From Catajapyx aquilonaris (Eukaryota): a stretch of DNA of 44,605 nt. The notes beneath the pieces are model-generated. The model made no database searches, was not told the origin of the DNA, and saw only the letters and a program-made list of their open reading frames with translations. The stretch is taken from NCBI GenBank assembly GCA_000934665.2, contig KZ538188.1, positions 62,001-106,605 of the forward strand. The letters are read 5' to 3'. Shown here piece after piece: positions 40 to 34,285 of this stretch. Within the stretch, counting starts at the first letter, position 1, and every line of letters starts with the position of its first letter. Position numbers and translations under genes: made by a program.

Positions 40-2767
40 CTCGTCCAGTTCATTTCCTCCCGTATGCTCTTCTCTCTCATGCTCCTTCAATTCCTCCTTT
101 GTCAAAAATGGCTCGGAGCATTTTGGGCAGAACACAACGGGACCCACCACAATCGAAAAGTGCCTCAGTTCTACCTGCAATTTAAATTACGTTGTAAATT
201 AATTGCGTAATATCATGGCACCATTTCCCAGCATCCAATCACATTGTAACTCAATGGCTTACTCACCCCTTGCACAAAGTAGTGTGATGAAGTAATTGCC
301 ATTTTGATGGCAGGATAGGGAAGATGTTGCTCCTAAAAAATAAAATAAAATAAAAACATGCGAACATGTTACCTTGCGAATGTTAAATATGAACTGCAAC
401 TACAACTGCCTCTTCCGTCTCACAAAGGGAGGCACTACCAGTGTGCTCACAAATTTTCAGATGTGGTCACAGGGAGAAAGCCAATATAATTATCTTGCTC
501 TATTCATCTGTGCAAATTTCATTCAAGCTATCATAAAATGTCTCCAAATATTTCAACACACCTGTTCTTTTGGATTTGTGAACACACTTTTAGGAGCGTA
601 ACTTCACACTAATGATTTACAAAGAAGCACAATATATAACAGGCTTTCCAAGTTCTTGTGTCATTTTTTGGTTATCATTAATATTGCCCAAATGCAGTTA
701 TTTTTGTACAGCTGCTTGTATCAAGGTGCCCTATTACTCCAAGATGGTCGCAGAGAGCAGTTTCTATTATCACCTGGTCAAGGACTTGCAACAAGCTACT
801 AGAATAACAGTTTAGTGTGAAATTTCCTTTAACTGAAAGTATTAATATGTTAGGTGCAGTCAATAAAAAAACGAGCCGTATTTATTGTAGAAAACCTATG
901 GGACAGACGACGTGGAGGAAGGATTGCGGATATGGTTCCAGGAACAACCCAAGAACTTCTATGAGCAGACCATTGTATGCCTTGTGGCTCAGTGGGATAA
1001 TATTGTCTAAATCATCATGGGCAATACTTTTTTAAAATTATTAAATATTACATTGATATTGCCTTCCGCTTGGTTTTATTGACTGGACAGCTCTTTTGGC
1101 TGATTGCTTCCCTTTCAATCCCTCTAGCCGCACAGATACATACGCATAATTTTCTTTACGGTTGGAGCATTATCCCACCCATTCGGATTTATTGTTGGTC
1201 CCATATTTTTCCGAAAATATATATATACGGCTCGTTATTTATTGACTGAACCTATTACTTGGAACATGTACAGGGTGGGGCAAAAGTCATTGGCGGATTA
1301 AAAAGACGCAGCATGGCGTAAGTAACGAACAATTATATTTTTTTTAAATTACACTACACAGAGAAAGATATGCCATTTATGGATCGAGGTCCAAAAAAGT
1401 CATTTTTTGACAACAACACCGGATGGATGTCCACCTCTGCGGGCAACACATTATTTTCATAACGCGCTCCAGAATGTCCAGGGGAATGCTTCTCATGGCG
1501 TGTCTTATCTGATGCTCAATCTGATCTTATCTGATCAGCCAATGACTGAGGACATGAGGCGAACACCAAGCAAATTAAAAGTCAAGTGTTTCCTGGGTAG
1601 GTCATTTCGAGATTTGGGGCCATTTCATGGCAGCTGCGGTCGCCGGATTCGACCACCCCCGACTTATTATGGGTACCTGAAGAGCTTGGTGTTCGCCACA
1701 TGTCCTCAGTCATTGGCTGATCAGATCAGATCAGATTGAGGATCAGATAAGACACGCCATGAGAAACATTCCCCTGGACATGCTGGAGCGCGTTATGAAG
1801 GGTTTTGTCCGGCCCTTGGAGGAATAATGTGTTGCCCGCAGAGGTGGACATCCATCCGGTGTTGTTTTCAAAAAGTCACTTTTTTGGACCTCGATCCATA
1901 AATGGCATATCTTTCTCTGTGTAGTGTAATTTTTTTTAAATATAATTGTTCGTTACTTACGCCATGCTGCGTCTTTTAAATCCGCCAATGACTTTTGCCC
2001 CACCTTGCATATTCCTCCACAGGATTACATAACATCAAAATTAAGGAGGTGAACCACCACTTGCGAGTGACTCTCATGAATAATTTGTCAATGGTTGCAT
2101 GGGTGATAGGCAGTCTTGATGCTGTTAGTCCTAAAGTATGGTTGGGTTAATAATTTTGTAAGGATGAGCGATATTTGCAATGTGCAAAGTGCTCATATGT
2201 AATTTTAAAATGTGATTCGTAATCTGGTGCAATTTTCATTCCAGCTAGCTGCTGCTCAACTCCAATTTACTTACTTCAGGTGGTTCTTCCATGACCTTGT
2301 CGTCTGCCTCGGACTTGACACTCTGCAGTGATGAAAGGACACGTGTTTCAAGGGCTTCCCTGCCAACAAGGCCATCGTCAGTCGCCCCATCCCGACCTCC
2401 TCCTCCTTCTCCCTTGACGTGGCATATTGGCCACAGAGCTGGTCCTTCCTCCTGAAGAAGACAACAATTCGAATGATGAGAAGGGTGTCCATGGCCACCA
2501 TTTCCAATGCCCCCAATCCCCCTCCTCCCCAAACAACCGCAATGCCAAGTGGGGGCCAACCTCCACTTTGATGTCCATCTCCAGTCCTCCTCCTTCTTCT
2601 TCCTCCTTCACCTGGCCACCATCTCCTGGTCCATCCTTCTCTTCTGCATTCCTCCTGACCAGGTCCCACCTGCTGTGCGTGAAGCTGTGCACCAGGAGCT
2701 CCAGGTGCGTGGGGAATGTCTGGAGGCAGCAGCGACACTCGTGCAGGGCGCTGGAGGTCGGGTCCAT
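40..2767 (-). CDS. C2H2 zinc-finger cluster gene A, 5' coding exons only (finger-array exon expected beyond the window start)
   Basis: GT-AG bounded phase-0 exons 2767-2561 (MDPT..CRCCLQTFPTHLELLVHSFTH..IKVE), 2451-2275 (EEGPALW..EPPE), 332-267 (EQHL..YFVQG), 174-40 (VELRHF..CPKC..HEREEH..DE); all multiples of 3 and collinear with units B-F; leader-exon donor at 3220. Confidence 0.8.
850..1255 (+). mobile_element. Internally deleted mariner-like element
   Basis: Imperfect TIRs taggtgcagtcaataaaaaaacgagccgta / tacggctcgttatttattgactgaaccta; interior ~895-1035 translates DDVEEGLRIWFQEQPKNFYEQTIVCLVAQWDNIV, resembling a mariner transposase C-terminus. Confidence 0.7.
1271..2007 (+). mobile_element. 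Tc1/mariner-derived foldback element with ~300-bp inverted arms
   Basis: TA|CAGGGTG start; arms ~1271-1571 and ~1684-2007 are reverse complements; spacer carries a frameshifted remnant of the W..RSPD..PD..WGYLKSLVF transposase motif. Confidence 0.8.
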
Positions 2768-3220
2768 CACTGGGAAAAAAAAAGCAGTGTTTGTCCTGTG
2801 ATGAGTATGACAGTTGCAAATTGACGGTCATGTAACCATCTTTTGTCCTGCAGGCCAACAAACGTTATTTTCGCTTTATCAATTAATAAGGTACCGCAGT
2901 TGGTGCTCGGCAAAGTCCCATTAATGTTAGATGGCTTGCGGCACTACAAGATGGTCCCACATGAAGTGCTCAGCTTGCTATGGCTTGAAACGATCTAAAA
3001 TCATTCGGCCATTGCTCCAGACTGTGCCTGGCAGTGCCACAATACAAAACGGCCCTCGTGCAATCACTCCAAAGCCATACACATGACAACCAACAAAAGG
3101 AATGTTGTCCTGGATCCAAATCCATCTTTTCCCTGCGTAATTACCGAAATGCGGTGACCAAGCAGCAGGGGAAGAGCAAAAGGGGGCACACGAGCACCAC
3201 CCAGGCGGGAGGAGGCTTAC

Positions 3221-3315
3221 CGTTTGCATCCAAACGAAAGGGACCAAACCAGAACAGCAAGCTTCAGAGTTCGGCCATGTTGGGCCAGTCCGAATAGCAA
3301 CGGCTTGTCTGGCCC
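3221..3315 (-). promoter_or_regulatory. Conserved promoter/leader-exon cassette of gene A with uORF MAEL* (3278-3264)
   Basis: Minus-strand tattcggactggcccaacATGgccgaa is shared with 12064-12090, 21773-21799 and 27213-27239; splice donor acg|gtaagc at 3220. Confidence 0.65.
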
Positions 3316-3835
3316 TTAGACCATATATACCTGTAGACGCTCCCCTCCCGTTTACGAGCAAACGCAGAAGTGAAACCACCCACTCTGAGGGGGGATCACG
3401 TGACTTAGGGCAAAAGGGAGGCGGGAAGGCGAAATTAACATGGCGCCTTATGGGGATTACGACTATCTTTGCGCCGTCACTGGCAGGCGCCTATTGGGAC
3501 TAAAAATATGCAATGGGTACCAAATGATAGCTCCACTCATGCCCCGTCTCATGCCGTACATCTCCATCCGAGAGGTTGAGCGGGGAAGGCCATAAAAAAT
3601 CCTACACTTTGTCATTGTTTCTCGCCGGAAGTGCAGTTTGTGTCACTACATCACTCAAACAACCACATTGAAATGTTCCAAATTTTAATATGTTGTACAG
3701 ACAATCTTCCTCTGCATATTTCACCAACTCGGGGCCGATTATTGAGGTTGATTTAATTATTCGGAAATAAAAAAGTGATATCGGAACTTAGGGCAGCTTC
3801 AGTTAGGTACTGATTGATCAAAGTCTGTGCAAAAC

Positions 3836-3837
<2 letters not shown>

Positions 3838-3894
<57 letters not shown>

Positions 3895-4342: not shown

Positions 4343-7300
4343 TCAAGAAACAACGTTTTTTTCACCATTTTCAACCTGGCATTTGCGCAAATGACTTACA
4401 AGAACCACACGTTTCTTGAATACTTTACCACACCAATTACATTCAAATTGCTGCTCATCTGATTGTCCACATTTATGACTTTTCAATTTTGCAAGAGAAG
4501 TAAAACTCTTGGAGCAAAGGTCGCACTTGCAAGAGCTCCCTTGTGCATGTGTCAACATGTGTTTATGCAAATGAAGATGAGAAATAAAACCTTCACTGCA
4601 TTCAGTGCACCTGAATGGCCTCTCTCCTGTGCGATGTCGTAACATGTGAGTGTGAAACATTCCCTTAGACAGGAGCACTGAATGACAAATGGAACACTTA
4701 TATTCCTTACTCTTGTAACCATGAAACCTTTCCCTATGGAGTTGTAGAGATGATCGGTGCCCAGTTTTATATGAACAATCTGGGCAACTGTGGTGTGAAT
4801 TGTGCACACGCATGTGTGATCGAAGAGGGGCACCGGAAATAAAACCTTTACCACATTCGGTGCACCGGAATGGTGTCTCTCCTGTGTGACGTCTCACATG
4901 AATATCAAACTTGCTCTTCGAAAACAGCACTTCACTGCAAGTTGGACATTTATGTTCTCCATGTCGCCTGGTTTTGTACCCGTGAAACTTTCTTCTGTGA
5001 AGAATTAGAGCCGATGCACAGGGACATTTATATGAGCAATCAGGGCAACTGTGCTTGGACATGTCTGCCCCATGAAAACTTCTCATGTGATCCTGCAAAT
5101 TATATTTATTAGCCAAGACTTTAGGGCAGTGTTTGCAAGCATGCTGCTCCTTGCCTTTGTAACGTACACCACTTCCGTGTATGTTCATGTGAATTTTCAG
5201 ACCTTGCCTCAATTTGAACCCCTTTCCACATTTATCACAAATGAAAGGAGTCTCATCAGAATGCACCATTAGCTTGTGACGGCTCAGTGACGTCTTGCAA
5301 CTTAAGCTCATTGAACACAGGCTGCACTTGAATGGCTTCTCACCAGTGTGACTACGCTCATGAACAGCAAGGTTTGATTTGCAAAGGAAACCTTGCCCAC
5401 AATATTTGCAAGGGTGCATTTTACCTATGTTATGGGCTCTCATCTTGTGCAGACTCAAACTATTAAAAGAACTAAATTTCTCAGGACATAATTCACATGT
5501 CATTACCTCTTTGCTGACGTGGTATAACCTTATATGTTTAATTAAACCACGACTGGATGTCAAATTTTTTTCACAAAATGGACAGCAGATAGATGCCTCT
5601 GCACTGCTACTAGAAGGGAGAGAAATTTCCCCTTCACCAATAGCATTACCTATTCCATCTCCAAATAACTTACTGAGTGCTTCATTTAAACCTTCCCCTG
5701 TATGGTCCTTCCGATGTTGTTTCAAATATCGATGACGTTTGAAGCACTTATTGCACATGTCACACTTGAAGGGCTTATCATCAGAGTGAACCTCCATATG
5801 CCTAGCTAGGTACCACGCATTAGAAAATGACTTGTTGCACTGATCACAAGTTGACTTTTTACAGGTCTGTGCACGGACATGAACACTGAGACCGCTCTTG
5901 TATGAAAATACTCTCCCACAGTGTTCACACCTGTAAGATCCCTTCTGGGTGTGCACTCTCCTGTGAAGCTTTAAACTCTTCATCTCAGTGAAGGATTTCC
6001 CACAGTCAGCACAAGCTAGTGACCGTGGCTCTTCCTTCTTGACCTTCTTGCTTGGCAATGCACTATCCTGAAAAAGATGGAAACCACATCAGGATTTTGT
6101 CATAATTTTTCACGTTTTCAATCCCAGAGTTGCACGATTGTTCCACAGAGAGAGAAGAATGGTTTGAAAGAAATGAATACTCACAATAATAAAAATTTCA
6201 AGCCAGCAAGTACAGGTGTTATAACATTGTAAGATTCATGAAAGAGACGGTCCCAAACTGACAACTTGCAACATGGAAGTTCCCATTTCTAAATCTGTAG
6301 AACCCTGCCACAATGCACCACAAACAAACAAACAAAACAAAACAAAAAATCCCTACACTCTACAATTTTTTGTTTCAAATTTCTAATCCAAGGTACAATA
6401 AATTCCATAATAATATTCAAAGCAGCCTACCCATAATTTTAGAATTAACAAAAAAACAAAACAAAAAAAAGCCCAGGCCCTGCTGACGCAAATGGGCAGA
6501 ATATATTGCGCTATAAATTAATAGGGAGTACAGTGTAACTGCTAATCCCAGGTAAGCCTACATTTATTCCTCATCCAATCCATCCTTGGTAAATTGGTTC
6601 TCACCTCTTCTGGTTCATCTCCTCCCAAATGCTCTTCTCTCTCATGCTCCTTCAATTCCTGCTTCGTCACAAATGGCTTGGAGCATTTTGGGCAACACAT
6701 AATGGGATCCACCGCAATTGAGAAGTGCCTCAGTTCCACCTGCAATTTAAATTACGTTGTTATTTACTGCCACTACTATCCATGCATCAAATCAAATTGC
6801 AGCCCCGAGTGTAACTCACCCCTTGCACAAAGTAGAACGATGAAGTATCATCCTTTTTGATGGCAGGAATGAGATGTTGTTCCTAAATTTAAAAAATTAA
6901 AAAATTAGCCAACATGTTACTATGTAAATGTCTAATATGAACTTGATTTTCACTATTTTCCTAAATTTCGCGATTTTTTTTCCTCCCAACGGTATTGCGT
7001 AATTTGGCTGAAACTGGACATGCCGTGTTATGGCATAGTCATGTACAGCTGTGATATTTTTCAGCAAATTGCGAGATGGTCTAGCAACATTTCGGCTTAC
7101 TTGATTCGGAATGACCCCTATGCACTATTTCGAGGAATTTGGTTTCTTGACTGCAACTGCCCCAAGGTCAACAACAAATCCCAGACAAAATGAATGCTCA
7201 ATTATGAGTTACCAGTGACCTAAGCAACATGGAAATAGCGATGAATTTCCATGGACAAAAATCGTGTTGCATAATGTAACACGTGCTGCTCTCGCAAAAA

Positions 7301-8338
7301 TTGCAAAACTTGAAGGCTCTGGCGACAAATGAAGATGACGTACCAGTACGAAGATTCTAAAAAAAATCACCAGTGTTATACTTGTCCATACACAACTTTT
7401 GACAGCCCGTGCGATTGAATCTGACAACTTTCGTTTTTTTTTTTCGCTCCATCCTAATGGACAGTACTGTTGCGGTAACAAAAAGCCATACAGCATCACC
7501 AAGACAAAGAGTCTCCGCGTCTCTAGATGCAGATAATCGTTAGACTTTCCCAATTTTATTGTAGCCAAACGCATTCTTGAACAAGAGTGTTTGTTCATTA
7601 TCTAGCAGCATACCATTCAGCCTGAGAGACAACAATGATCCCGTCGGCATTCTGCTCCAGCTTGAGGAATTAATTCCAGGGTCCCTGGTCACTTCCCCCA
7701 CTTAAAACCCACACAAAGCAATGGTTCAAAGGGTCAGCAAGCGTGCAAGCAGCAGGTACTGTTTCCTAATTGAATCGGCGAATGTGCTGTAAACCCCACT
7801 TCAGCCCAATTTTCATTCCAGCTAACTGTTGCAAATACCCAATCTACTTACAGCAGGTGGTTCTTCCATGACCTTGTCCTCTGCTTCCAACTTGATACTC
7901 TGCAATGGTGAATCAACTGTCATGTCAAGGCCTTCGGTGTCAAGTGGTCCATCATCAGGTTCATCGTCAGTTGCCCCATCCTGACCTCCTCCTCCCTTGA
8001 CGTGGCATGGCCACAGAGCTGGCCCTTCCTCCTGAAGACAATTCGAATGATCAGAAGGGTGTCCATGGCCACCATTCCCTGTCCCCAATCCCCCCCAAAC
8101 AACCAGGACAAGTGGGGCCAACCTCAATTTTGATTTCCATCTTCAGTCCTCCATCTTCCAGACCTCCTTCTTCCTCCTTCACTTGGCCACCATCTCCTGG
8201 TCCATCCTTCTCTTCTGCATTCCTCCTGACCAGGTCCCACCTGCTGTGAGTGAAGCTGTGCACCAGTAGCTCCAGGTGCGTGGGGAATGTCTGGAGGCAG
8301 CAGCGACACTCGTGCAGGGCGATGGAGGTCGGATCCAT
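4343..8338 (-). CDS. C2H2 zinc-finger cluster gene B, ~772 aa, ~18 array fingers plus 2 isolated N-terminal fingers
   Basis: Exons 8338-8123, 8031-7852, 6882-6820, 6739-6605, 6067-4343; all GT-AG, phase 0, open; last exon contains ORF 4343..6058 with repeated CxxC-x12-Hx3-4H/C and TGEKPF-type linkers. Confidence 0.9.
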
Positions 8339-12578: not shown

Positions 12579-15500
12579 TTACCGCACCAATTCAAATTGC
12601 CGCTCATCTGATTGTCCACATTTATGACTTTTCAATTTTGCAAGAGAAGTAAAACTCTTGGAGCAAAGGTCGCACTGGCAAGAGCTCCCTTGCGCATGTG
12701 TCAACATGTGCTTATGCAAATGAGGAAGAGAAATAAAACCTTCACTGCATTCAGTGCACCTGAACGGTCTCTCTCCTGTGCGATGTCGTAACATGTGAGT
12801 GTGAAACATTCCCTTAGACAGGAGCACTGAATGACAAATGGTACATTTATATTCCTTACTCTTGTAACCATGTAACCTTTCCCTATGGAGTTGTAGAGTT
12901 GATCGGTTCCCAGTTTTATATGAACAATCTGGGCAACTGTGCTGTGAATTGTGCACACGCATGTGTGTTCGAAGAGGGGCACGTGAAATAAAACCTTTAC
13001 CACATTCAATGCACCTGAAGGGTGTCTCTCCTGTGTGATGTCTCATATGAATATCAAACTTGCTCTTAGAAAACAGCACTTCACTGCAAGTTGGACATTT
13101 ATGTTCTCCATGATGCATGGTTTTGTAACTGTGAAACTTTCGTCTGTGACGAATTAGAGCCGATGCACAAGGACATTTACATGAGCAATCAGGGCAACTG
13201 TGCTTGGACATGTCTGCCCCATGAAAACTTCTCATGTGATCCTGCAAATTATATTTATTAGCCAAGACTTTAGGGCAGTGTTTGCAAGCATGCTGCTCCC
13301 TGTCTTTGTAACGTACACCACTTCCGTGAACGTTCATGTGAATTTTCAGGTCATTCCCCAATTTGAACCCCTTTCCACATTTATCACAAATGAAAGGAGT
13401 CTCATCAGAATGCACCCTTAGCTTGTGATTCTGCAATGACGTCTTGCAACTTAAGCTCATTGAACACAGGCTGCACTTGAATGGCTTCTCACCAGTGTGA
13501 GTCCGCTCGTGTGTAGCAAGTACAGATTTGAAAAGGAAACGCTGACCACAATATTTGCAGGGGTACATTTTACCAACATTATGGGCTCTCATCCTGTGCA
13601 GACTCAAACTATTAAAAGAACAAAATTTCTCAGGACATAATTCACATGTCAGTACCTCTTTGCTGACGTGGTGTAACTTTACATGTTTAACTAAACCATG
13701 ACTGGTTGTCATAATTTTTTCACAAAATGGACAGCGGAAAGATGCCTCTGCACTGCTACTAGAAGGGAGAGAAATTTCCCCTTCACCAATAGCATTACCC
13801 ATTCCATCTCCAAATAACTGACTGAGAGCTTCATTTAAACCTTCCCCTGTATGGTCCTTCTGATGTCGTTTCAAAGCGGCATCACGTTTGAAGCACTTAT
13901 TGCACTTATCGCACTTGAAGGGCCTGTTATCAGAGTGAACCTCCATATGTCTAGCTAGCTTTGAGGCATTACAAAATGATTTGTTGCACTGATCACAAGT
14001 TGACTTTTGACAGGTCTGTGCATGAACATGAACATTGAGACCGCTCTTGTATGAAAATACTCTCCCACAGTGTTCACACTTGTAAGATCCCTTCGGGGTG
14101 TGCGATAACCTGTGAAGCTTTAAATTCCTCATATTACCGAAGGCTTTTCCACAGTCAGCACAAGCTAGTGACCGTGGCTCTTCCATCTTGACCTTCTTTC
14201 TTGGCAATGCACCATCCTGAAAAAGATAGAAACCACGTAAGGATATTGTCAGAATTTTTCACGTTTACAATCCCAGAGTTGCACGGTTGTTCCACAGAGA
14301 GAGAATGGTTTGAAAGAAATGAATACTCACAAAAATAAAAATTTCAAGCTAGCAAGTACAGGTTTTACGACATTGTTAGATTCATACAAGAGAGGGTCGC
14401 AAACTGACAACTTGCAACATGGAAGTTCCCATTTCTAAATCTGTAGAACCTTGCCACAATGCACTACAAACAAACAAACAAACCAACCAACCAAAAAAAA
14501 AAAATCCCTACACTCTACAATTTTTTGTTTCAAATTTCTAATCTGAGGTACAATAAATTCCGTAATAATAATCAAAGCAGCCTACCCATAATTTCAGAAC
14601 TAAAAAAAAAAAAAAACCAGGCCCTGTGCATACAAATGGGCAGTATATATTGAACTATGAGTAATTGTCACACAAGTTTGAAAAGTAGGTGCTCCTAGAT
14701 TATTATTATTCATCCCTAACTTGAATAATAATAGGTAACCCAACCCATGATAGGCCTGGAATCGTCCCTAATCCAATCCATACTTGGTAATTGATCCTCA
14801 CCTTTTCTAGTTCATTTCCTCCCAAATGCTCTTCCCTCTCATGCTCCTTCAATTCCTGCTGTGTCAGAAATGGCTTGGAGCATTTTGCGCAAAATATAAT
14901 TCGATCAACCACAATAGAAAAGCGCCTCAGTTCCACCTGCAATTTAAATTGCAAATTCATGCATAATATATGTCACTGCATCAAATTACATTTCAACTCA
15001 ATGTCTGACTCACCCCCTGCACAAAATAGTGTGACGAAGGAATTTCCTTTTTGATGTCATGCGTCTGGAGGCGTTGCGCCTAAAAAAAGGGAGGAAAAAA
15101 GGTGTCAATGGCTGGGATGTGACCTTACAAATGCCAAACATGAACTTAAACTACATTTCATCTCACATACATTGTATTCACAAACGTTACAAGATTGACT
15201 TTATTCTTATGAGTGATTCCTCAACTCATTCATCACCCTGCCAGGTAAAGTGGACTCATTTTTGCCACATGCAAGTGCTCCGTCATACATCACAATTGAT
15301 CCAGACTATGGACAGTCGGAGAAATCGCAAAATTCATTGTCAAAATTCATAATTATGATTGGAGTAGCGTGATACGTAGTATTTGGGGGTCACTCCAGCA
15401 GGTGATATCAAATGCGCAAATAAAATTCGACAAAATATAAACTTATAATTTTGCCATATAACTCGTAAGGAGTTGGTGCACTACCCGGATTATAAAAAAA

Positions 15501-17455
15501 TAAAAAATAAAAATTATTGAAACCGCCAATCAATATTGTTGTAGGGGAAAGAGCAAAGCCTCCAAAAGCCAGTTGCGCAAGCTCAAGTCTTTGCGACTAG
15601 TTTAACCAACTTTCAAAAGTGGATCTAATCAGCTTACTATGAAAGTGCTCCATCGTAAAGAAATAGTCGCTTCAAGCATTTAGGCTCAGAATGTGACATA
15701 CACCAGTATGTTACTACACTTCAAAAACAGATGTGCAAACGCACGCAGCACTTTGTAGGTGAAAAGAGAATGTGACCTACACTTGTTCTTATCCTTACTT
15801 TTCATTTTTCTCTGTCATCATACTAAGAATATTGAGAATATATCTGTGACCGGATGAAGTATGTGTCAACGTTTCAATTTATTTGTTAATGTTTCTTATT
15901 TTCAAATTGTTAGGTTTTTAAAGGGACACTCCACTCAAAATACAAGTTGGGTTCTAAAAATCGGGCAAAAAATCCTGATTCCGAGGGTATAAGCAGTTTT
16001 TCTTAGAGACGAACGGTAAGGCCAGTGTGAAAGCTGGAAGTGCTTCGTTCGAAAACCGCGCGCGGGGCAGGTGGCGCAGGTAGCGACACAGCCAGAGTGG
16101 AACCGGGCGGAACTAGAGAATGTGCCTGGCGCGGCCAGGGTCCCCTACATGGTTGCCTGCCCCACCCTAACTGTCTAACTGTCTAGGTGGGGGAGGCACT
16201 CATGTAGGTGACCCTGGGCGGGGCACAGCCTCTACTTCTCCAGTTTGCCGCGAGATGGTGTTGTATCGCCCTTCTTAGCAAACGACGTGTGTAGATATAT
16301 TATTTTCCGTGTTACCGTTGGGCGTAGGAAAAAACCGATTGCACGTTCGGAATCAGGATTTTTTGCCCAATTTTTGGGGGCAAACTTTTACTTTGAGTGG
16401 AGTGTCCCTTTAAATTTTCTGTAACATTATCCTCCATATGCCCACAAACGTAACATTTCTGTGGCTATTTGCTATTTTGTTCGTGCCTATTTAAGTCCCT
16501 ATTTCACGGTTTTTTCGTGCCTATTTCAAGTTTTTTTGTGCCTAAAAATCTGGACTCTAGTGATCAAACATAATCAAAAAATGTGATCAAGAACTATGCT
16601 GCAATTTTCATTCCAGCTAACTGTTGCTAATACCCAATATACTTACTTCAGGTGCTTCTTCCATGACCTTGTCCCCTGCCTCCAACTCGACACTCTGCAA
16701 TGGTGAATCCACTGGCGTCTCAAGGCCTTCCCTCTCCACATGTCCATTGCCAAGTTCAGTCACCCCATCCTGACCTCCTGCTCCTCCCTTGACGTGGCAT
16801 ATTGGCCACAGAGCTGGTCCTTCCTCCTGAAGAAGACAACAATTCGAATGATCAGGAGGGTGTCCATGGCCACCATTTCCAATGCCCCCAATCCCCCCTC
16901 CCCAAACAACCCATGCCAAGTGGGGGCCAACCTCCACTTTGATGTCCATCTCCAGTCCCCCTTCTCCATCCTCCAGACCTCCTTCCTCCTCCTTCACCTG
17001 GCCACCATCTCCTGGTCCATCCTCCTCCTCCTCCTCCTCCTCTCTCTTGTGGGTCTCAAGTGGTCCATCCCCAGGTTCAGTCACCCCATCCTGACCTCCC
17101 TCTCCTCTGACGTGGCATGGCCACAGAGCTGGTCCTTCCTCCTGAAGAACAACAATTAGAATGATCAGAAGGGTGTCCATGGCCACCATTCCATATCCCC
17201 AATCCCAAAACAACCATGTCAAGTGTGGCCAACCTCAACTTTGATTTCCATCTTCAGCCCTCCATCCTCCAGACCTTCCTCCTTCACTTGGTCATCTCCT
17301 GGTCCATCTGGCTCATCCTCCTCCTCCTCCTCCTCCTCTCTTATCCTGACCTGGTCCCATCTGCTGTGGGTGAAGCTGTGGACTAGAAGCTCCAAGTGAG
17401 TGGGGAATGTTTGGACACAGCAACGACACTTGTGCAGGGTGGATGTTGGATCCAT
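12579..17455 (-). CDS. C2H2 zinc-finger cluster gene C, ~816 aa, with one extra chimeric exon; last finger lost by a 5-nt deletion
   Basis: Exons 17455-17234, 17141-16932, 16826-16647, 15079-15014, 14936-14802, 14216-12579; phase 0, GT-AG; close paralog of B; ends QFELVR* where B reads QFECNWC. Confidence 0.85.
15922..16409. mobile_element. Kolobok/T2-like MITE
   Basis: TTAA|AGGGACACTCCACTCAAA ... TTTGAGTGGAGTGTCCCT|TTAA with longer imperfect subterminal inverted repeats. Confidence 0.8.
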
Positions 17456-23712: not shown

Positions 23713-26700
23713 TTATTTGTCATTTTTAACCTGGCATTTACGCAAATGTAGCACAAGACGGCTACGTCTCTTGAGTACTTTACCGCACCAATTACATCCA
23801 AATTGCCGCTCATCTGAGCGTTTACATTTGTGATTTTTCAAATCGGCAAGAGATGTAAAACTCTTGGAGCATTTGCTCCACTTGCAAAAGTATCCAGGCT
23901 GATGCATCATCCTGTGTTTGCGCAAATAATAGAAAGAAACAAATCCCTCATTACATTCAGTGCACTTGAATGGTCTCTCTCCCGCATGACATCGCATATG
24001 CGTATCAAACTTTTTCTTATAATAGAACGCAAGATTGCAAATTGAACACTCATGGTCCTTTTGTCCCCTTCTTTGGCCCCTTGTTTTGTATCCATGAAAC
24101 TTTTGTCTGTGAAGAATTAGGGTACCTCTACTTGTGCATTTATACGAGCAATCAGGGCAACTGAACGTGGACTTGGGCGCCCCATGATAACTTCTCATAT
24201 GATACTGCAAAGACTTTTTATCAACTAAGATCTTAGGGCAGTGTTTGCAAGCAGCCCGCTTCCTGTCTTTGTCGTGTACTTTCATGTGATCCTTCAGACA
24301 TTCCCTCAGTTTGAATCCCTTCCCACATTTATCACAAATGAAAGGAGTCGCATCTGAATGCACCAATAACTTGTGATGCTGCAATGATGTCTTTGAACCC
24401 AAGCTCTTTGAACACAGGCTACACTTGAATGGCTTCTCACCAGTGTGACTGCGCTCATGTCTAGCAAGAGAGAATTTGGTAGGACAAACTTTTCCACAAT
24501 AGTTGCAGGGGAACATTTTCCCAATGTAATGGACTCGCTTCTTGTGCAAATTCAAATCAGATGTAGAATAAAATTTCTTGGAACATACTTCACAAGTGAA
24601 TACCTGGTCACGGACATGGGAAACTCTTACATGATTAATTAAGCCACTTCTGGATTCCATATTTTTTGCACAAATTGGACAGCAGAGAAATGTCCCTGTC
24701 TCACTGTTTGAAGAGAGAGAATTTTCACCTTCATCAATAGCATGGCCTATTCTGTCTCCAAGTAATTTTTTGAGAGCTTCCTTCAAACCTTCCCCTGTAT
24801 GGTCCCTCTGATGTTTTTTCAAATTTCCATGACGTTTGAAGCGCCTACTGCACATGTCACACTTGAAGGGCCTGTCGTCAGAGTGAACTGCCATATGGTG
24901 AGAGAGGTTCCACTGGTCACGAAATGATTTGTTGCACTGATCACAAGTGAATGACCTCTGACATATCTGCGCATGAAGATGCCTACTGAGATGGCCCTTG
25001 TGTGAAAATACTCTCCCACAGTGTTCACATTTGAAGGATTCCTCCTTGGTGTGCTCTGTATTGTGAAGCTTCAGCTTGCTAAAGCTGTTCCCCTGGTCAC
25101 GAGTAGCTTGTAACTGTTTCTCTTTCTTCTTGATCTTCCTCCTTAGCGATGCACAATCCTGAATAAAAAGGAAACCATATAAGGATCCTCTCAGTAGGAT
25201 TAATTTGACTGCGAGCAGGGTGGCATTGTGGTCCATGCAAACATAAAATGTTTTGAAAAAAAAAAAAGAAAAAAGAAAAAACACTTGGAAAAATAAAAAT
25301 TACATATATAATCCCCAGCTAGTATACAGCGTGTATCGGAACTCTACCATAAGCCATGTACCAATGGCATAAGGGGCACCAGAGCATCATTATATCTAGA
25401 GGGGTCATCATGTCTAGGCAGCCCCATCACGTAGATAATTGATCATTTGCGAAGTAGCGATTGAGCTTAAGCGTGATTGTAGAATAGCAGTGCATCTGGG
25501 GGGAACTGCATTCTAAGAGACCCTTAGGCCCGTATTCATAATGGAATTCGAACGCGGGGTCGGGGTAGAACCTGGGGTTGAGGCGGAGTTGACCCCGGGT
25601 TCGTATTCATAATGGCCTTGAAACCCCGCGATCCGGGGGGGTAGTTGAAGACTGGAAAGGGACTCCCAAGATATTTGTAATTGGTGGTAATTACTAGCGG
25701 TCTTCCGTTCCAGAAAAACTTCTTTTTCGCAGAGAGAACCCCACCCTTTCTAAAAATCAGAACCTGTGTTTTCCCCACATTGACAGACAGGCCAATTTCA
25801 TCCAAGTACTGAGCCAGGGCTATTTGACGCTGTAAAAACCTGAATGAGAGCTGACGGCAGAGCTATATGTCAGAAAGAGTAATAAAGAATTCGTTACTTC
25901 ATGACAATCCTGTGCGCATTAATCACTAATCCAATCGACGCTTGATAATATTGATCCTCACCTCTTCCAGTTCATTTCCTCCCAAATGCTCTTCTCTCTC
26001 ATGCACCTTCAATTCCAGCTTGGTCACAAATGGCTTGGAGCATTTTGGGCAGAACACAATGCGATCCACCCCAATAGAGAAGTGTCTCAGTTCTATCTGC
26101 AATTTCAATTACAAGGTCATTGCAATCAAATCACACTGCAACACAAAGTGTGACTCACCCCCTGCACAAAGTAGTGCGATGAAGTATTTTCCCGTTTGAT
26201 GACAGGATGGAGATGATGTTGCCCCTAGAAAATAGAAATATTGTAATTTTATTGTTACGCTTTAATTTGTTTTGCTGCCGCAGCTGCTGAGTTTAACAAC
26301 GTACTCTATGCAAAGAAAATAAAAATATTTTCCAACATTCTGTTCCATAAACTCGACATAAAGAAAAGAAAAGTAGTCGGTTACTTGAGTAGAGAGCCCA
26401 GAATGTTCCCATCCGTTGTCGTGATTCAGACGATATCAACGAGTGACTTTAGTTCTATAAAAATGGCAGGCAAGCACCTGGACTGGTCTGTCAAATTTTA
26501 ATGTGGCTGATGAGAGTGGGGGAAATTCATGGTTCTCTCCCTAACAGATTGCAATTTACTTACTGCAGGGTCTTCTTCCATGACCTTGTCCTCTGCCTCC
26601 GGCTTGACCCTGTGCAGTGGTGAATCCACAGGTGTTTCAAGGCCTCCCCTGTCCAGTGGTCCATCGCCAGGTTCAGTTGCTCCATCCTGACCTCCTTCTC

Positions 26701-27078
26701 CTTTGACATATGGCCACAGAGCTGGCCCTTCCTCCTGAAGAAGACAACAATTATTCGAATGATTAGAAGGGTGTCCATGGACACCATTTCCAATGCCCCC
26801 AATCCCCCTCCCCAAACAACCCATGCCAAGTGGGGGCCAACCTCCACTTTGATGTCCATCTCCAGTCCTCCTCCTTCTTCCTCCTTCACCTGGCCACCAT
26901 CTCCTGGTCCATCCTCCTCCTTCTCTTCTGCATTCCTCCTGACCAGGTCCCACCTGCTGTGGGAGAAGCTGTGCACCAGGAGCTCCAGGTGCGTGGGGAA
27001 TGTCTGGAGGCAGCAGCGACACTCGTGCAGGGTGCAGCTGGAGGTCGGATCCTCCTCCTCCTCCTCCCGAGTGGACAT
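23713..27078 (-). CDS. C2H2 zinc-finger cluster gene D, ~684 aa, ~14 array fingers
   Basis: Exons 27078-26842, 26734-26564, 26224-26159, 26096-25962, 25158-23713; phase 0, GT-AG, open; first array finger degenerate; an in-frame upstream ATG at 27213 is an alternative start. Confidence 0.85.
25655..25810 (-). mobile_element. Non-LTR retrotransposon reverse-transcriptase fragment in an intron of D
   Basis: GLSVNVGKTQVLIFRKGG..WNGRPLVITTNYKYLG matches the late RT motifs (L.VN..KT / YKYLG) of LINEs. Confidence 0.7.
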
Positions 27079-27209
27079 GGCCTGTTGTTCCTCCTCCAGC
27101 CCTGGCCTCCCCACCAGATCCCAAAAGAGGGAAGGAGGATCCGAGGCCCCCTTCTTCTTCCTTTTCCCAACCAGAGGAGAAGAGCTGAAGAGGACGAGAA
27201 GAAGGCTTC

Positions 27210-27344: not shown

Positions 27345-27689
27345 CACATATTAGAACTAGTTCTAAATTGTGGCGGGAAGACATGTTTTCCTTTGAGTTA
27401 TTTCCAGACATGCTAAACGATCATGTTAAGGCCCACCAGTCTCCCGGGGAGTCACACCAGAAGTCATGGGTAAGTTTCAGTCTTTATTCACCATAGTAGG
27501 CTACAGACTTGCTCACTGGACAAAATAATCAAACAGACTTTTTCCTTCTTTTTTATGACACATTCAACCGGCCATACCCTCAATACAAATTATGTACAAA
27601 AATTCCTGTGCCCCTCATGAGCTAGCTGTACCACAACAATTACATTCATACTGCCCACACTACTAGTGTTTTCAATTATTATTTTTCAC

Positions 27690-28356: not shown

Positions 28357-30261
28357 CTAAGATTTTAGGACAGAGTTCTTGTCTTTGTCATGTTCTTTCA
28401 TGTGATTTTTCAGAGTGTTCTTCCATTTGAATCGCTGTCCACATTTATCACAAATGAAAGCATTATCAGCAGAGTGCAACATTAGCCTGTGACACTTCAA
28501 TGATTTAGTTGAACTCAAGTTCTTTGAACACACGGTACACTTGTATGGCTTCTCACCAGTGTGGCTACGCACATGTCTAACAAGTTCAGATTTGTCAAGG
28601 CAAACTTTACCACAATATTTGCAGGGGTGCATTTCCCCCATGTTATGGGTTCGCTTCTTGTGCGCATACAACTGAAACATAGAATTAAATTTCTCAGGAC
28701 ATAATTTGCAAGCATATACATGGCCAGAGACATGGTAATATTTTATGTGACTAATTAAGCCACTACTGGATTCCAGATTTTTTGCACAATATGGACAGCA
28801 CAGCGCAGCCTTTGAACTGCCGCTAGAACGGAGATCCTTTTTACCTTTACCAATAGCAACAACTATTCCATCTCGAAGTAATTTTTTGCGTGCTATATTC
28901 AAACCTTCCCCTGTATGCACCTTCTGATGTTGTTGCAAAGTGGACAGAAACTTGAAGGACTTAGTGCACTTGTCACACTTGAAGGATCTATCATCAGAGT
29001 GAACTGCCATATGTCTGGACAGGTACCTGTAATAATCATATGATTTGTTGCACTTATTACAAGTGAATGGCATTTGACATGCCTGTGAGAGAACATGACT
29101 CCTGAGATTGCCCGTGTGTGAAAATAGCCTCCCACAGCGTTTGCATTTGAGAGAGTCCTCCTCGGCGTGCTCCTTCCCGTGACGCTTTAAATGCCTCTTA
29201 TTGCTAAAGGTTTTCCCACAGTCATCACAGGCATGTAACCGTTTCATCTTTCTTGGCAATGCATGATCCTGAAAAAAAAAAGGAATCCATACTAGTAACC
29301 TTGCAATGGGGCCACGTTAAATGTGAGTGGCACACTCTGATCCTTACCTTTTCTAGTTCATTTCCACCCGTATGCTCCTCTCTCTCATGCTCCTTCAATT
29401 CCTGCTTGGTCACAAATGGCTCGGAGCATTTTGGGCAAAACAAAATGGGATCCACCGCAATAGAGAAGCGCCTCAGTTCTACCTGCAATTTAAATTACAT
29501 AGTTAATTACTGAATAATATCATGACAACATTTCACTTCATCAAATCACATTGTAACGCAAAGGGTGACTTACTCCCTGCACAAAATAGTACGATGAAGC
29601 AATTTTCTTCTCCTGGGTAAGACTGCCTGGCTGTTGTTCCTAAGGAAAAAAAAAAAGAAGGTGCAAACCATTGGTAATAATCACTGCTTATTAGACACCA
29701 TACCAGAAATAGTAAATTTTAATGTACGAATGTTCTCGTAATTGAAGTCACAATGAAGCATTAGTGTAATGCTGTAAAGTGAAGTACATTGTGAAATTTA
29801 CTTACTTCATCTACATTTTCAGTAATAATGTCCTCCACCTTCATATTTGCATCTAGTAACTGGGAATTCAAGGAAAGATCCTGCGATGCCACGTCAGAAT
29901 GTCCACTAACATCAGACTGTACGTCCCGACCTTCTGCTCTTTCCAAATTCCAAGCTGGGCCCTCCTCCTAAAACAATCAGCAATAAAAAGCGATTATTAC
30001 CATTTAAGTTTCCAAACCAACAACCATGCATGTACAGCCAACCTCCACTTTGAAATCCATCACAAGCTCTTCCGTATCCTCCACTTCTTCCTTCACTTGA
30101 ACACCGTCAATTCCACCAACTCCTTCTCCTTCCTCCTCCGTCTCTTCCTCCTTGATCTGGTCCAATCCTCCATGTGTTAAGCTGTGGGCAAGAAGCTCCA
30201 AATGTGTCCTAAATATCTGCAGACAGCAACGGCATTTGTGCTTCTCACAAGCATAATCCAT
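28357..30261 (-). CDS. C2H2 zinc-finger cluster gene E, ~497 aa, 9 array fingers, 3'-truncated by a frameshifting deletion
   Basis: Exons 30261-30043, 29967-29806, 29639-29574, 29482-29348, 29268-28357; phase 0, GT-AG, open; no promoter cassette seen upstream. Confidence 0.7.
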
Positions 30262-33243
30262 CCCTGGAAAAAATAATCAATTTTTATTAATCATAGTTAA
30301 TATTTGTAATTGACTCTGTGCTGAGCCCCATTGCAAGAGAAAAATTAAAATTCACATTATGCCAAAAAGAAAATAGGTGCAGGAAGTCCCCAATTTACGA
30401 ACGACCCGATTCATGCCGATCCGTCCTTACTAACTGGGTCCCAAGGCTCGACATAAAGGTTCGACATAAATACTGTGTAATTCATAAACACAGCACAGGT
30501 ACTTTTCCCCAATGTCATGGGCTCTCTTCTTGTGCACATTCAAACTATACATAGAATAAAACATCTCGGAACATAATTCACAAGTGAATACCTTGTCATG
30601 GACATGGTGTGACCTTACATCATTAATTAAGCCACGACTGGTTTTGAGAATTTTTTCACAAAATCGGCAGCAGGTAGATGCAACTGTACCAGTGCTAGGT
30701 GAGTGATCACGAAATGATTTGTTGCACTGATCACAAGTGAATGACTTTTGACATGCCTTTGCATGAACAGGAGTACTAACACTGCCCTTGATTGAAAACA
30801 CTCTTGCCACATTGTTCACTACTGCTAGATTCCTCCTTGGTGTGCTCTTCCCTGTGAAGTTTCAGAAGCTTCTGCTTACCAAAAGTATTCCCATGATCAG
30901 TGCAAGCTAGGAACTGATTCCCTTTCCTCTTCATCTTATTCCTTGGCAATGCAAAATCCTGGACATGAAAAAAAGAAAATCATATCAAGATCCTGCTGTA
31001 GGGGAGTTGTACACACAGTGCTGAATCTACAGAATTTCGAAGGGAGGGGGCAGAAACATTTGCTGCCGCTCCTCACCCCGGCAATTTGAAAGGTTCACTT
31101 CATTTTTTTTATATGGATGTGTACTTCAGGCAATTAAATAAACTGCTTGCACCAGCATAATGCAAAATGTCTGTTTAGGGATGAATGCAAGTTACGATCC
31201 AGTGAAATACAAATGAAGTATGATACGGTATAAATAGATTGACACCTCAGTAGTCAACTCTGTATTTAAATTTTTATGCTAATTATCTCAGTAACTAGGC
31301 TGTGGAAGCACACAATCTTTGTACATAAAATGATAGCCTAGATCTCCACAATTGTTCCCCAAAGGAAAGGCACGTTACATTCCCACACCCTGGTGTATTA
31401 TAATGGACATTAGTCGACTATACTAAAAACTAGAGTACTAGACGATCGTAATTTCTCTGCAATGTACGCATTAACTACGCACCGGAGCCCAAAACTAATT
31501 GCACATCCCTACATCAGTTTTGTGAGTTCTATCAATCTACCTGGCGATTGGGTGCAAGTGTCCCTTCACCCTGTATACATATGCAGAGAACCTTGATTAG
31601 CATACGTTGTTGCAGAGCAAAATGATGACTTTCGCTTTATGTGACAAAATTAATATTCGTCTTTTAGCTACCACCAAAATTCTGAGAGTGAGTTCTTAGT
31701 TGCAAAATTGTATTTTATGGCATAATCATATGTCAAATGTCTCAAATCAGTCTAGCGCTCAATACTCCTACAATGTCAGCAGGACTTACTTTACTGACAC
31801 AGCAGAGAATGGGCTTAGAACCCAAAGGTTTTCTTCAATTTTTTTTCCCCCGTGAAGTTCTTCAAGAAAATAACAGTTAAAATTATCAAGAAAACTTGTG
31901 GAGGAAAGTAAAACTAATTTAGTATATCTCCGGGTATGTCGGATTCTATAGAATCTCTTCAAATTATTTCGCTGTTTGGAAGCTTGGGACTAGCCTTTCC
32001 AGATCATTGTAACCGAAAGTCTGTTGTAGCCAAGGCTGTAATATCCGGATTCAACTGTATAAGGTCACGAGCCAGAGCAAAAACCGAATAACAAGGATAA
32101 ACTGACAGGAAATCACAAAACTTGGGCAAAAGACACAAAGCAAGTATTACTTCCTCTGGACTATCCAGCTTATAGCCCGTTTCCACTTGCACAGTGCGTT
32201 ATCATATATTTTTCTACATGCTTGGAGCCCACCCAGCCGCCCCAACCCGCCCACTTTGCTAAGGTGCGGATAAGCTATATACTTTCCCCGTTTTTTATAT
32301 TTTAAAAATTCACGCAATGACTTTTGTCTCAATCCATGTAATTTGATCCTCACCTTATCTACTTCATTTCCAACCAAATGCTCTTCTCTTTCATGCTCCT
32401 TCATTTCCTGCTTTGTCACCAACGGCTTTGAGCATTTTTGACAAAATATAATGGGATCCACCACAATCGAAAAGTGCCTCAGTTGTATCTGCAATTTAAA
32501 ATTACATTGTCATTAACTGCATAATATCATGACAACATTTCACTGCATCTTATAGTGCAACCAAAATGTCACTTACTCCCTGCACAGAGTAGTTTGATGA
32601 AGCAATTTTCTTCTCCTGGGGATGGTCGCCTAGCTGTTGTTCCTAAGGGAAACAAAGTGCAAACCCAATGATAAGAGTCGCTGCTAATTACACACCATTT
32701 AAATTATCAGTATAATTCTCTGCAATACATTATGTAAATTATCACTCGCTGATGTCCACATGCACCACAAGGTCAATGAAAGTGCCGAAAACAATAAACG
32801 TGAGCATAATTGAAGCACAAAATGAGCAAAATGTTGTTCATTCATTCATTCATAACATCACGGCCTAATCCCAGACATGGGGTAGCCAGCGACGACTAGT
32901 TTGTGCCCAGCCGTCTCATATGACCATTACAATGACTCTTCTGGTGACTGGTCAGGCCACGCAGAAGATAATGTTGTAAAGCACCATAAAACAAAGTACC
33001 ACATTTACCTTACATAAGGCATTATCCGGTATAAAAAGAGGTCAACCAGCATGCCGGTATAAACCAGGGCGTAGCTGGCATGTCGCAATAACCGAGGCAG
33101 CTTTCCGTAATATTTTGGTCCATGTCAATTATTTTTTTTAATGCTTCTGTTACTGCGCTCAAATAATGTTACAGTGAAAAATGTGCTTGTACAGGGCTAT
33201 GAGAATATGCAAGATCATCTGTTGCACAGGTCATAGAGTGTGT

Positions 33244-33597
33244 AATAATTCTAGAATAATTTTAGTAATAATTCTTGGGTAGTGCCTGACCCTGTATAGG
33301 GTATGCGGCACAGACCTTTTTGTAACTTTTAGTACATAGACCATACTGTTGAAATGCCCGGGCCCACGGGCAGTATGACAGGAGGGGATGTGCAAGGAGC
33401 AGTGCAATGTCTTAATGTGGCCATTTTTAGTGAACTCCTCCGGGTGGTTTAGTATGTTGGAAATACCACCCGAGACGAAGCCAGATGTGACCCTGAACTC
33501 TGCACAAGATGAAGGGGGTGTCCCCGGGCAGGGATCGAACCCGGGACCTTAACATCCGTGGGCGCATACGTTACCGCAGCACCGCCCTGCCTCCCCT
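33244..33597 (-). mobile_element. tRNA-derived SINE
   Basis: Minus-strand B box GGTTCGATCCC, (TTA)-rich tail, TSD caggtcatag(a/t)gtgtgt at 33227-33243 and 33598-33614. Confidence 0.75.
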
Positions 33598-33618
33598 CAG
33601 GTCATAGTGTGTGTGATG

Positions 33619-33731
33619 CAAGAGGTTAACCACTCGACTGTAAATTGTACACTGGAGTACCCAGGAGTACCAAAGCTAGGGTACCTAAGGGCTAAGGAGT
33701 ACTTTGGAGTACCGAAGTGGTTAACCTCTTG
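33619..33731. mobile_element. Short MITE with CA...TG termini
   Basis: 16-bp TIR caagaggttaaccact / agtggttaacctcttg; flanks gtgtgatg / gtgtgacc (6 of 8 match); internal ggagtac repeats. Confidence 0.65.
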
Positions 33732-34236
33732 GTGTGACCAATTTCATATTGCTCAATTTCATTGCCCTTACTTCACCTACATTTTCTGTCATAATGTCCT
33801 CCACCTTCACATCTGCACCTAGTAACTGTGAGTGCATCGAAATATCCTTGTCACAACGCCCAATAACATCAGGTTGTACGTCCCGACATGCTCCTCCTTC
33901 GAAATACCATGCCCCATCAGCAGGGCCCTCCTCCTAAAGCAATATTAGCAATGAAAAGTGATTCCCAATTCCTTCCAAACCAACAACCATGCATGTGCAG
34001 CCAACCTCCACTTTGAAATCCAGCACCAGCTCCTCCGCACCCTCCACTTCTTCCTTCACCTGAACATCACCCACTCCTTCCCACTGGCCAATCTCTCCTT
34101 CCTCCTCTTCCCCCGATCCCTTCATCTGGTCCTATTTATCCCAAACCCAGGGGCCAGACCGTGGGCGAAACAGGGGGCGAAAAAAGACACGTGGTCTCCA
34201 AAGAGCGGCATGGGTCTCAATTGATTCCGAATTTTG

Positions 34237-34285
34237 CCTACAGATGGCAGCAGCATACAAGCGCTACACTGCTGTCCTCTGACGG
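34237..34285. promoter_or_regulatory. Convergent CTCF-like motif pair upstream of unit F
   Basis: + CCTACAGATGGCAG and - CCGTCAGAGGACAG, 49-bp span, ~110 bp upstream of the first F exon. Confidence 0.45.

Follow-up and report, generated by a model that had tools for sequence, protein, structure and literature searches.

Lineage-specific subfamilies of zinc-finger proteins (ZNFs) with N-terminal regions of their own (KRAB, ZAD, SCAN and FiNZ) are the main examples of arms races between genomes and transposons. KRAB is a helical domain that binds TRIM28, and ZAD is a C4 zinc-coordinating dimerisation fold. In the layout of ZFX, ZFY and ZNF711, an acidic N-terminus encoded on several exons is followed by a basic patch, and a single terminal exon then encodes all of the fingers; H-x4-H fingers and non-TGEKP linkers are numerous. 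ZFX itself, a conserved activator encoded by a single-copy gene, lacks isolated N-terminal fingers. Here we describe a tandem cluster of C2H2 genes in a stretch of 44,605 nucleotides of Catajapyx aquilonaris DNA (contig KZ538188.1, positions 62,001 to 106,605; hereafter the window, whose own numbering is used throughout). The window holds part of this cluster, namely four intact genes (497-816 amino acids), a fifth gene that continues past the window edge and a pseudogene, and the six copies are named g0 to g5 in order from low to high coordinates. On balance, we lean towards explaining them as a lineage-restricted, multi-exon C2H2 family with diversifying DNA-contact residues and a common front end, a region of about 195 amino acids spread across four small exons ahead of the finger array.

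The cluster resembles KRAB genes in its head-to-tail arrangement, in the conserved N-terminal region on small exons with the fingers in one large exon, and in fast change at DNA-contact residues. It differs from them in that its folded parts are predicted C2H2 fingers and the tail of exon 1 is predicted to be disordered, and KRAB (PF01352) gave no Pfam match on exons 1, 2 and 4 of g1 or on four array exons. With the insect ZAD-ZNFs (zf-AD, PF07776) it shares a zinc-binding N-terminal element before a C2H2 array, as well as lineage-specific tandem clusters, but in this family the two N-terminal zinc sites are of the canonical C2H2 type, and no match to zf-AD, SCAN (PF02023) or BTB was found by Pfam in any of the 11 proteins scanned. 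The acidic N-terminus, the basic patch, the terminal finger exon and the non-TGEKP linkers recall ZFX, ZFY and ZNF711; unlike ZFX, this is a tandem family with isolated N-terminal fingers, and the matches to its array are generic, with no more than 36% identity among the best 120.

FiNZ is described as a sequence of 28 amino acids, encoded by one exon immediately before the array exon; the FiNZ-ZNFs are a cyprinid-specific family that numbers about 700 in the zebrafish (Wells et al. 2023, PMC10547256). Likenesses to that account are the tandem amplification, a conserved Glu-rich N-terminal region without a known domain before the finger exon, the diversification of fingers between paralogs and the repression of transposable elements that is proposed. 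The same account sets the present family apart, since its front end has about 195 amino acids, four phase-0 exons and two C2H2 fingers; here, moreover, six copies are seen, their arrays are co-linear and TGEKP linkers are few. A further difference concerns the KRAB-like domain, which is described as helical in the KRAB-like and TRIM33 work (PMC11603059, PMC9101882), in contrast to the predicted C2H2 fingers found here.

Gene structure of the cluster

Within this single window, the copies were located by a six-frame scan for the motifs given in an earlier, sequence-only reading of the same DNA, and exon boundaries were taken from three-frame views, an alignment of the 5'-part DNA and regular-expression anchors. 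That reading had described six head-to-tail paralogs, each with four small exons before its array. Six head-to-tail copies are indeed present, all on the minus strand and with their elements in a recurring order; five arrays are visible, four of them intact, the array of g0 lies outside the window, and g2 has five small exons instead of four. The shared plan is one of four small phase-0 exons ahead of one finger exon.

All listed splice sites are canonical (AG at 23/23 acceptors and GT at 25/25 donors), and the length of each of the 28 listed exons is a multiple of 3 nucleotides, so that every intron is in phase 0. Exon lengths differ between copies by multiples of 3 throughout. No such constraint is seen in intron 1 (109, 91, 105, 107, 75 and 72 nucleotides in g0 to g5) or in intron 3 (92, 80, 77, 62, 91 and 88 nucleotides), and therefore insertions and deletions have been filtered for frame in exons only. 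Coding lengths are 207-237 nucleotides for exon 1, 162-180 for exon 2, 63-66 for exon 3 and 909-1722 for exon 5; exon 4 has exactly 135 nucleotides in 6/6 copies, as had been noticed before, and its HEREEH motif is invariant. All exons are open in the four intact genes, which encode proteins of 772 (g1), 816 (g2), 684 (g3) and 497 (g4) amino acids. In g0, g1, g2 and g4, a polypyrimidine tract and CAG stand directly before the ATG, which suggests an upstream non-coding exon.

These observations bear on a different account, in which the small exons do not belong to the finger genes at all but are mis-modelled, part of separate transcripts or untranslated. Exons 1 and 4 have no counterpart in protein databases, as this account would have it, and the GA-rich region of exons 1 and 2 is largely open in all three frames, so that openness alone is weak evidence for coding. 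Nevertheless, in 5/5 visible cases the small exons keep their order, strand and spacing with respect to the array, the splice sites are phase-compatible as well as canonical, length changes by multiples of 3 are confined to exons, polypyrimidine-AG directly precedes the ATG in four copies, and the ratio of nonsynonymous to synonymous substitution rates (dN/dS) is below 1. We consider a mis-joining of this kind very improbable; sequence logic argues for the exon-intron structure given here.

Composition of the front end

Read from N- to C-terminus, the proteins would consist of a canonical C2H2 finger with an extended helix, an acidic tract that includes QVKEE and xKxE and whose exon-1 part is predicted to be disordered, a short hydrophobic stretch spanning the exon 3/4 junction, a second canonical C2H2 finger, a basic patch resembling a nuclear localisation signal, and 9-17 further fingers in a single exon. 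The first finger, CRCCLQTFPTHLELLVHSFTH, reads C-x2-C-x3-F-x5-L-x2-H-x3-H in the sequence of exon 1, and the second, CPKCSKPFVTKQELKEHEREEH, follows the same pattern in exon 4 but ends in H-x4-H. By their spacing, by the positions of F and L and by their predicted beta-beta-alpha fold, both isolated fingers are canonical C2H2. The hydrophobic finger C[RK]CC..THLELL, which the sequence-only reading had placed in all six paralogs, is present in 5/6 copies and has been lost from g5 together with the first half of exon 1.

AlphaFold2 was run on six-row alignments of exon 1 and exon 4 individually. For exon 1 it predicted a beta-beta-alpha finger (predicted local distance difference test, pLDDT, of 87 over the block) with a helix that extends to residue 44, followed at residues 46-72 (pLDDT below 50) by an acidic tail that is predicted to be disordered. 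For exon 4 a beta-beta-alpha finger was likewise predicted (block pLDDT 84-91), with an N-terminal stretch of lesser confidence (66). Compared with PDB structures using Foldseek, the exon 4 fold matched C2H2 fingers only, with a root-mean-square deviation of 0.5-0.8 over 27-29 residues; no match reached E<=0.001, as is expected for so small a fold. The idea that the front end is a new, autonomous domain found no support: its confidently folded parts are two ordinary C2H2 fingers, and the psi-K-x-E tract of exon 1 is predicted to be disordered.

Aspartate and glutamate make up 21-26% of the front end, the acidic region lying between the two fingers. In the exon 1 alignment of six copies, the invariant columns are E43, G46, D49, Q52, V53, K54, E55, E56, L65, K70 and E72. 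Three psi-K-x-E motifs had been proposed for each copy; QVKEE and [IF]K[VI]E are each found in 6/6 copies, and the third, in exon 2, in 5/6, with g2 having VELE in its place. Each module contains 3-6 psi-K-x-[ED] motifs, against a mean of 0.64-1.13 in composition-preserving shuffles, and the observed count was reached in 4, 4, 0, 1, 14 and 77 of 2000 shuffles for g0 to g5, respectively. As a motif match, QVKEE(E/V), present in 6/6 copies, would conform to the SUMO consensus psi-K-x-E followed by acidic residues, as the consensus and the negatively-charged-residue-dependent definitions of such sites have it.

The stretch across the exon 3/4 junction is also kept in 6/6 copies, as claimed, in the form SSxY[FS]VQG at the end of exon 3 and [VI][EQ]LR[RH]FSI at the start of exon 4; more loosely, exon 3 ends in SS.Y.VQG and exon 4 begins with.[EQ]LR.FSI.V. 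Exon 4 as a whole has 71-80% identity to g1 in all copies and 22/45 invariant columns, and no other part of the protein is as well conserved between the two subfamilies as its finger.

An acidic region of this composition could also be a transcriptional activation domain, in which case the proteins would be activators with a layout like that of ZFX and ZFY. The interspersion of hydrophobic residues among the 21-26% D+E, the predicted disorder of the exon-1 acidic tail, the basic patch with which the finger exon opens (KKVKKEE, RKKVKMEE, RRKIKKKEK), and the many H-x4-H fingers and non-TGEKP linkers all fit such an activator. The best 120 matches to the array (<=36% identity), however, include no ZFX-like protein, and the invariant lysines in QVKEE and xKxE are better accommodated by a modification site than by a generic acid blob. 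We therefore hold activation by the front end to be improbable.

Searches for known domains and relatives

A Pfam hmmscan at E<=0.1 covered 11 proteins, including exons 1, 2 and 4 of g1 and four array exons; exon 3, with 21 amino acids, lay outside the scan. On exon 1 the sole match was sub-threshold, to DUF7565 (PF24446; E 0.043, 14.7 bits against a cut-off of 27.1), and no C2H2 family matched it at E<=0.1; exon 2 had no Pfam match, and exon 4 had sub-threshold C2H2 matches (PF00096 / PF13894; 23.0-23.5 bits against cut-offs of 25.2-27). A sequence-profile comparison of exon 1 with PDB returned weak finger matches only, to fingers of SALL4 and ZNF268 (E 0.03-0.07), and in the ESM Atlas exon 1 was matched by small C2H2 clusters alone, with recognition under the usual mark.

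In a word-index search of 5.8 billion clusters, no relative was found among longer proteins for exon 1, nor for an exon-4 profile even at E<=10. An exon-1 HMMER profile run against 1.84 billion representatives brought up 5 proteins at E<=0.001, none of which reached 1e-10. We rejected these 5 as relatives, as they are unrelated proteins that have a generic single C2H2 finger in common; none of them looks like a cyprinid ZNF. For the g1 array, the best 120 matches were generic poly-ZNFs only, at 24-36% identity, in a database that clearly includes vertebrate proteomes. Three front-end peptide motifs did not occur in the literature searched, and a keyword search of it gave no relevant result. 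Thus, with single-exon queries in the Pfam, word-index and profile searches, the front end remained as unrecognised as it had first appeared, without a match to a described effector domain; neither a described domain nor a single conserved orthologue, the two outcomes that the sequence-only reading had named as refuting its proposal, was found.

Four other proteins (P0002, P0048, P0078 and P0112), which we take to be typical of teleosts, have an 'LREFI..RLTAAAEEIF' N-terminal region together with PPxIKEE(Q/E)EE motifs. They resemble the present family in having acidic psi-KEE tracts between an N-terminal element and the fingers, and differ from it in that the element is another one, isolated fingers are missing and the profile search gave no significant similarity; the LREFI/AAAEEI motif is absent from the window in any frame. 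Since psi-KEE motifs occur in these other fish ZNFs, the tract may be a general feature of fish ZNFs and not unique to this family. Linker style and intron size, taken by themselves, would suggest a teleost-like vertebrate as the source of the DNA.

The acidic motifs of the same four N-termini, for example PPQIKEEQEE, could be taken to mean that the front end is a diverged member of FiNZ, actinopterygian KRAB-like, KRAB, SCAN or ZAD, and so could its Glu-rich composition, a property of FiNZ and KRAB (PMC10547256). We regard such an identity as highly implausible. Pfam KRAB, SCAN and ZAD are not found on exons 1, 2 and 4; FiNZ as described has 28 amino acids on a single exon, against about 195 amino acids on four exons with two fingers here; and among the 1.84 billion representatives the exon-1 profile did not pick up any family of fish ZNFs.

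Selection on the front end and the finger arrays

Across exons 1-4, dN/dS was 0.30-0.43 for g0-g3 compared with g4, and 0.28-0.59 over all ten pairs. Exon 1 alone gave 0.17-0.18 (g1-g4 and g2-g4) and exon 4 gave 0.25-0.56 against g4, and for the whole array exon the ratio was 0.54-0.84. Within the array, codons for the DNA-contact positions (-1, 2, 3 and 6) had an omega of 0.93-2.69 in five pairs, estimated from 34-64 codons per pair with no significance test for omega >1. The other finger codons, a framework class that takes in structurally fixed residues, had 0.36-0.63 in the same number of pairs.

Counts of variable columns gave a similar picture. Between g1 and g2, 21/64 contact columns were variable, against 32/280 framework columns (odds ratio 3.8, p 8e-5), and among all four genes the figures were 31/34 and 78/157; odds ratios for contact-column variability ranged from 3.8 to 10.5, with p values between 3e-4 and 1e-9. 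Purifying selection acts on the front end and on the framework of the fingers, and the DNA-contact residues are fast-changing. In this respect the likeness to KRAB and FiNZ genes that the sequence-only reading had drawn was borne out: a conserved front end and a conserved framework go together with fast contact residues.

History of the copies

The arrays contain 17 (g1), 16 (g2), 13 (g3) and 9 (g4) fingers, with identities to g1 of 86% (g2), 62% (g3) and 55% (g4). They share a non-finger linker, HTGEGLNEAL..., as well as the initial basic patch; TGEKP-type linkers number just 1-3 per array, and many fingers are of the H-x4-H type with non-TGEKP linkers. The arrays had been called variable, which is true of them through deletion and truncation only: they comprise one positionally orthologous set of fingers that has not been shuffled.

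Self-BLAST placed g1 and g2 closest together, with 2.97 kb shared at 87% identity, introns included. The older pairs had 72-79% over the finger exons and up to 86% over small exons and short introns, and the g4/g5 lineage is older, with a synonymous divergence (dS) of about 0.4 from g1 in the array and long introns that cannot be aligned. Exon 1 and intron 1 depart from this among g0-g3, where they have 93-98% identity next to an exon 2 with a dS of 0.22-0.38 (2452-2767, 8032-8338, 16827-17455 and 26735-27078, minus strand). The pattern points to gene conversion among g0-g3 that was limited to the 5' end.

Such a history invites the view that an ordinary multi-exon C2H2 gene has recently given rise to all of the copies by segmental duplication, that most of them are decaying, and that the 'module' is no more than the N-terminal portion of this gene. 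The arrays differ in length by deletions and truncations and are otherwise co-linear; g5 is a pseudogene, the first array finger of g3 lacks its cysteines, and g2 and g4 are truncated; whole-array dN/dS is 0.54-0.84; g1 and g2 are 87% identical over 2.97 kb including introns; and protein searches found no relatives elsewhere. Four copies, on the other hand, have all five exons open and their splice sites intact, the older g4/g5 lineage still keeps the module (dN/dS 0.30-0.43, exon 4 at 80% identity), and the framework is constrained (omega 0.36-0.63) where the contacts are not, unlike what uniform decay would leave. We judge decay of this kind unlikely, if a serious alternative, and think it quite probable that the copies are real genes of a lineage-restricted family.

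Several points nevertheless weigh against the lineage-restricted family with a common front end and diversifying contact residues that we favour. The joining of exons 1-5 and their expression are presumptions drawn from sequence. No exon-exon joints appeared in the contigs of two runs, X5 and X1, which cover non-exonic DNA as well, a result with no bearing on expression. A single ancestor gave rise to all six copies by duplication of the entire gene, and their arrays are co-linear, so the combination of one effector with many different arrays is not demonstrated; the front end may look conserved simply because these whole-gene duplications are young. Apparent conservation would also have been inflated by the gene conversion at the 5' end, and exon 2 is weakly constrained (dN/dS against g4 of 0.37-0.83). 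Whole-array dN/dS and the lost or truncated fingers also fit relaxed constraint and decay over adaptive diversification, and the small, untested codon samples behind the contact-position omega have to be counted here too. The 1-3 TGEKP-type linkers per array are unlike those of typical poly-ZNFs that target transposable elements, and SUMO-consensus motifs are commonplace in acidic regions.

The copies one by one

All features in this section lie on the minus strand. Of g0, cut by the window edge, exon 4 (40..174, 135 nucleotides) carries the hydrophobic strand and the second C2H2 finger, with the array beyond the window start; exon 3 (267..332, 66 nucleotides) ends in SSHYFVQG, exon 2 (2275..2451, 177 nucleotides) is acidic (EEGPALWP...VKSE), and the coding part of exon 1 (2561..2767, 207 nucleotides), with polypyrimidine-CAG and then ATG, encodes finger 1 and the QVKEE/IKVE tract. 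In g1, exon 5 (4346..6067) encodes the basic patch and 17 fingers in 574 amino acids, preceded by exon 4 (6605..6739, 135 nucleotides), exon 3 (6820..6882, 63 nucleotides), exon 2 (7852..8031, 180 nucleotides) and the coding part of exon 1 (8123..8338, 216 nucleotides).

The array exon of g2 (12582..14216) has 16 fingers in 545 amino acids and is without the last finger. Its exon 4 (14802..14936, 135 nucleotides), exon 3 (15014..15079, 66 nucleotides), exon 2 (16647..16826, 180 nucleotides) and exon 1 coding part (17234..17455, 222 nucleotides) are joined by an extra exon (16932..17141) of 210 nucleotides, in frame and with AG/GT borders, that combines a 5' half from exon 2 with a 3' half from exon 1. 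This chimeric exon provides a second copy of the QVKEE/IKVE tract and probably originated by unequal recombination within the gene.

In g3, exon 5 (23716..25158; 13 fingers, 481 amino acids) has an internal deletion and a first array finger without cysteines; exon 4 (25962..26096, 135 nucleotides), exon 3 (26159..26224, 66 nucleotides) and exon 2 (26564..26734, 171 nucleotides) are followed upstream by an exon 1 (26842..27078, 237 nucleotides) whose 5' end has been replaced, with no acceptor and with an alternative ATG that gives MSTREEEEE. The short array of g4 (exon 5, 28360..29268) has 9 fingers in 303 amino acids, and its other exons are exon 4 (29348..29482, 135 nucleotides), exon 3 (29574..29639, 66 nucleotides), exon 2 (29806..29967, 162 nucleotides) and the coding part of exon 1 (30043..30261, 219 nucleotides).

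Copy g5 is a pseudogene, because the first half of its exon 1 is gone, its array is frameshifted and cysteines have been lost. What is left comprises a truncated array remnant (30433..30958), exon 4 (32354..32488, 135 nucleotides), exon 3 (32577..32642, 66 nucleotides, with SSNYSVQG), exon 2 (33772..33933, 162 nucleotides) and the 3' half of exon 1 (34006..34122, 117 nucleotides), the finger-1 part being degenerate and with stops. Only about 170 bp (30262-30432) separate the array remnant of g5 from the start codon of g4, which leaves g4 with hardly any upstream DNA of its own; the g4 promoter may be located inside the g5 pseudogene or on the far side of it.

Surroundings of the cluster

The DNA around the copies was described as dense in transposable elements, which is plausible given repeat-rich depth and the PIF1-like and THAP open reading frames (ORFs). 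In the DNA run X1, the summed contig depth was about 31-37 in single-copy bins and exceeded 350 in 9/30 bins, within 21100-34400. The peak, at 82,000-125,000, fell on 33088-33975, where intron 2 of g5 contains a very high-copy repeat, and further high-depth bins are 25096-25539, 27760-28203, 31312-32199 and 32644-33087. The depths of seven DNA contigs that cover exon 4 of g4 add up to about 1227, where single-copy DNA has about 32, and although depth is not copy number, further copies probably exist elsewhere, perhaps tens of them.

Between g1 and g2 lie PIF1-like helicase ORF fragments (8950-10137, plus strand; Pfam PF05970 with E 1.4e-43 for 9356-9847), which suggest a Helitron-type element; the sole N of the window is at position 9130. 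A 265-amino-acid ORF between g2 and g3 (22409-23206, plus strand) has at its N-terminus a THAP domain (PF05485) whose match, with E 5e-5, just passes the cut-off, and a tandem repeat at 20540-20958 (33-bp unit, 12.9 copies, 83% matches) contains repeated KQRVTNTQ-like ORFs on both strands.

Upstream of the cluster there is a separate, classical poly-ZNF ORF of 443 amino acids (36322-37653, minus strand) with 14 Pfam C2H2 stretches, HTGEKPF linkers and a DNA periodicity of 84/168 bp; no module-like exons were found upstream of it. ORF fragments at 37997-38384 (minus strand) have no Pfam family, and their motifs ..YQQDS..H and ..DFNPTDH..W are presumably, though unconfirmed, those of Tc1/mariner transposases. 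An open frame of 245 amino acids at 42916-43653 (plus strand), unrelated to the cluster, matched leucine-rich repeats weakly (PF12799, E 0.0017) and did not reach the cut-off. Fourteen other ORFs between the genes had no Pfam family, and Rfam and tRNA scans of the window gave no match.

Possible function and significance

On this evidence the lineage-restricted ZNF subfamily appears to be real, with a front end that matched no described domain in the searches made. The paralogs would be sequence-specific DNA-binding regulators whose targets have diversified while a regulatory front end was kept in common. That front end would most likely be a region of short linear motifs rather than a new globular domain, and recruitment of a corepressor might depend on SUMO, with one or both isolated fingers assisting as protein-contact surfaces. 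SUMO-linked repression as the mechanism is a tentative proposal, somewhat on the unlikely side, and that transposable elements are the targets is more doubtful still. The analogy to KRAB, ZAD and FiNZ would be one of evolutionary pattern only.

A bolder reading goes further. The front end would be a new ZNF effector region, made of a SUMO-consensus linker and two protein-contact fingers with exon 4 as the dock for a cofactor. The family would number tens of genes, diversifying selection on their contact residues would serve the silencing of transposons, and all this would take place in a lineage without KRAB-TRIM28. We consider this speculative and rather improbable; if true, it would add an independent, convergent solution beside KRAB, ZAD and FiNZ. 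For non-KRAB families the recruitment of silencing machinery is an open question, a point that Wells et al. (2023, PMC10547256) make for FiNZ. With a shared front end built of short linear motifs and isolated fingers, the present family would add one more independent case of a lineage-specific ZNF subfamily with its own N-terminal region, and the lysines of QVKEE and IKVE would offer a testable handle on it.

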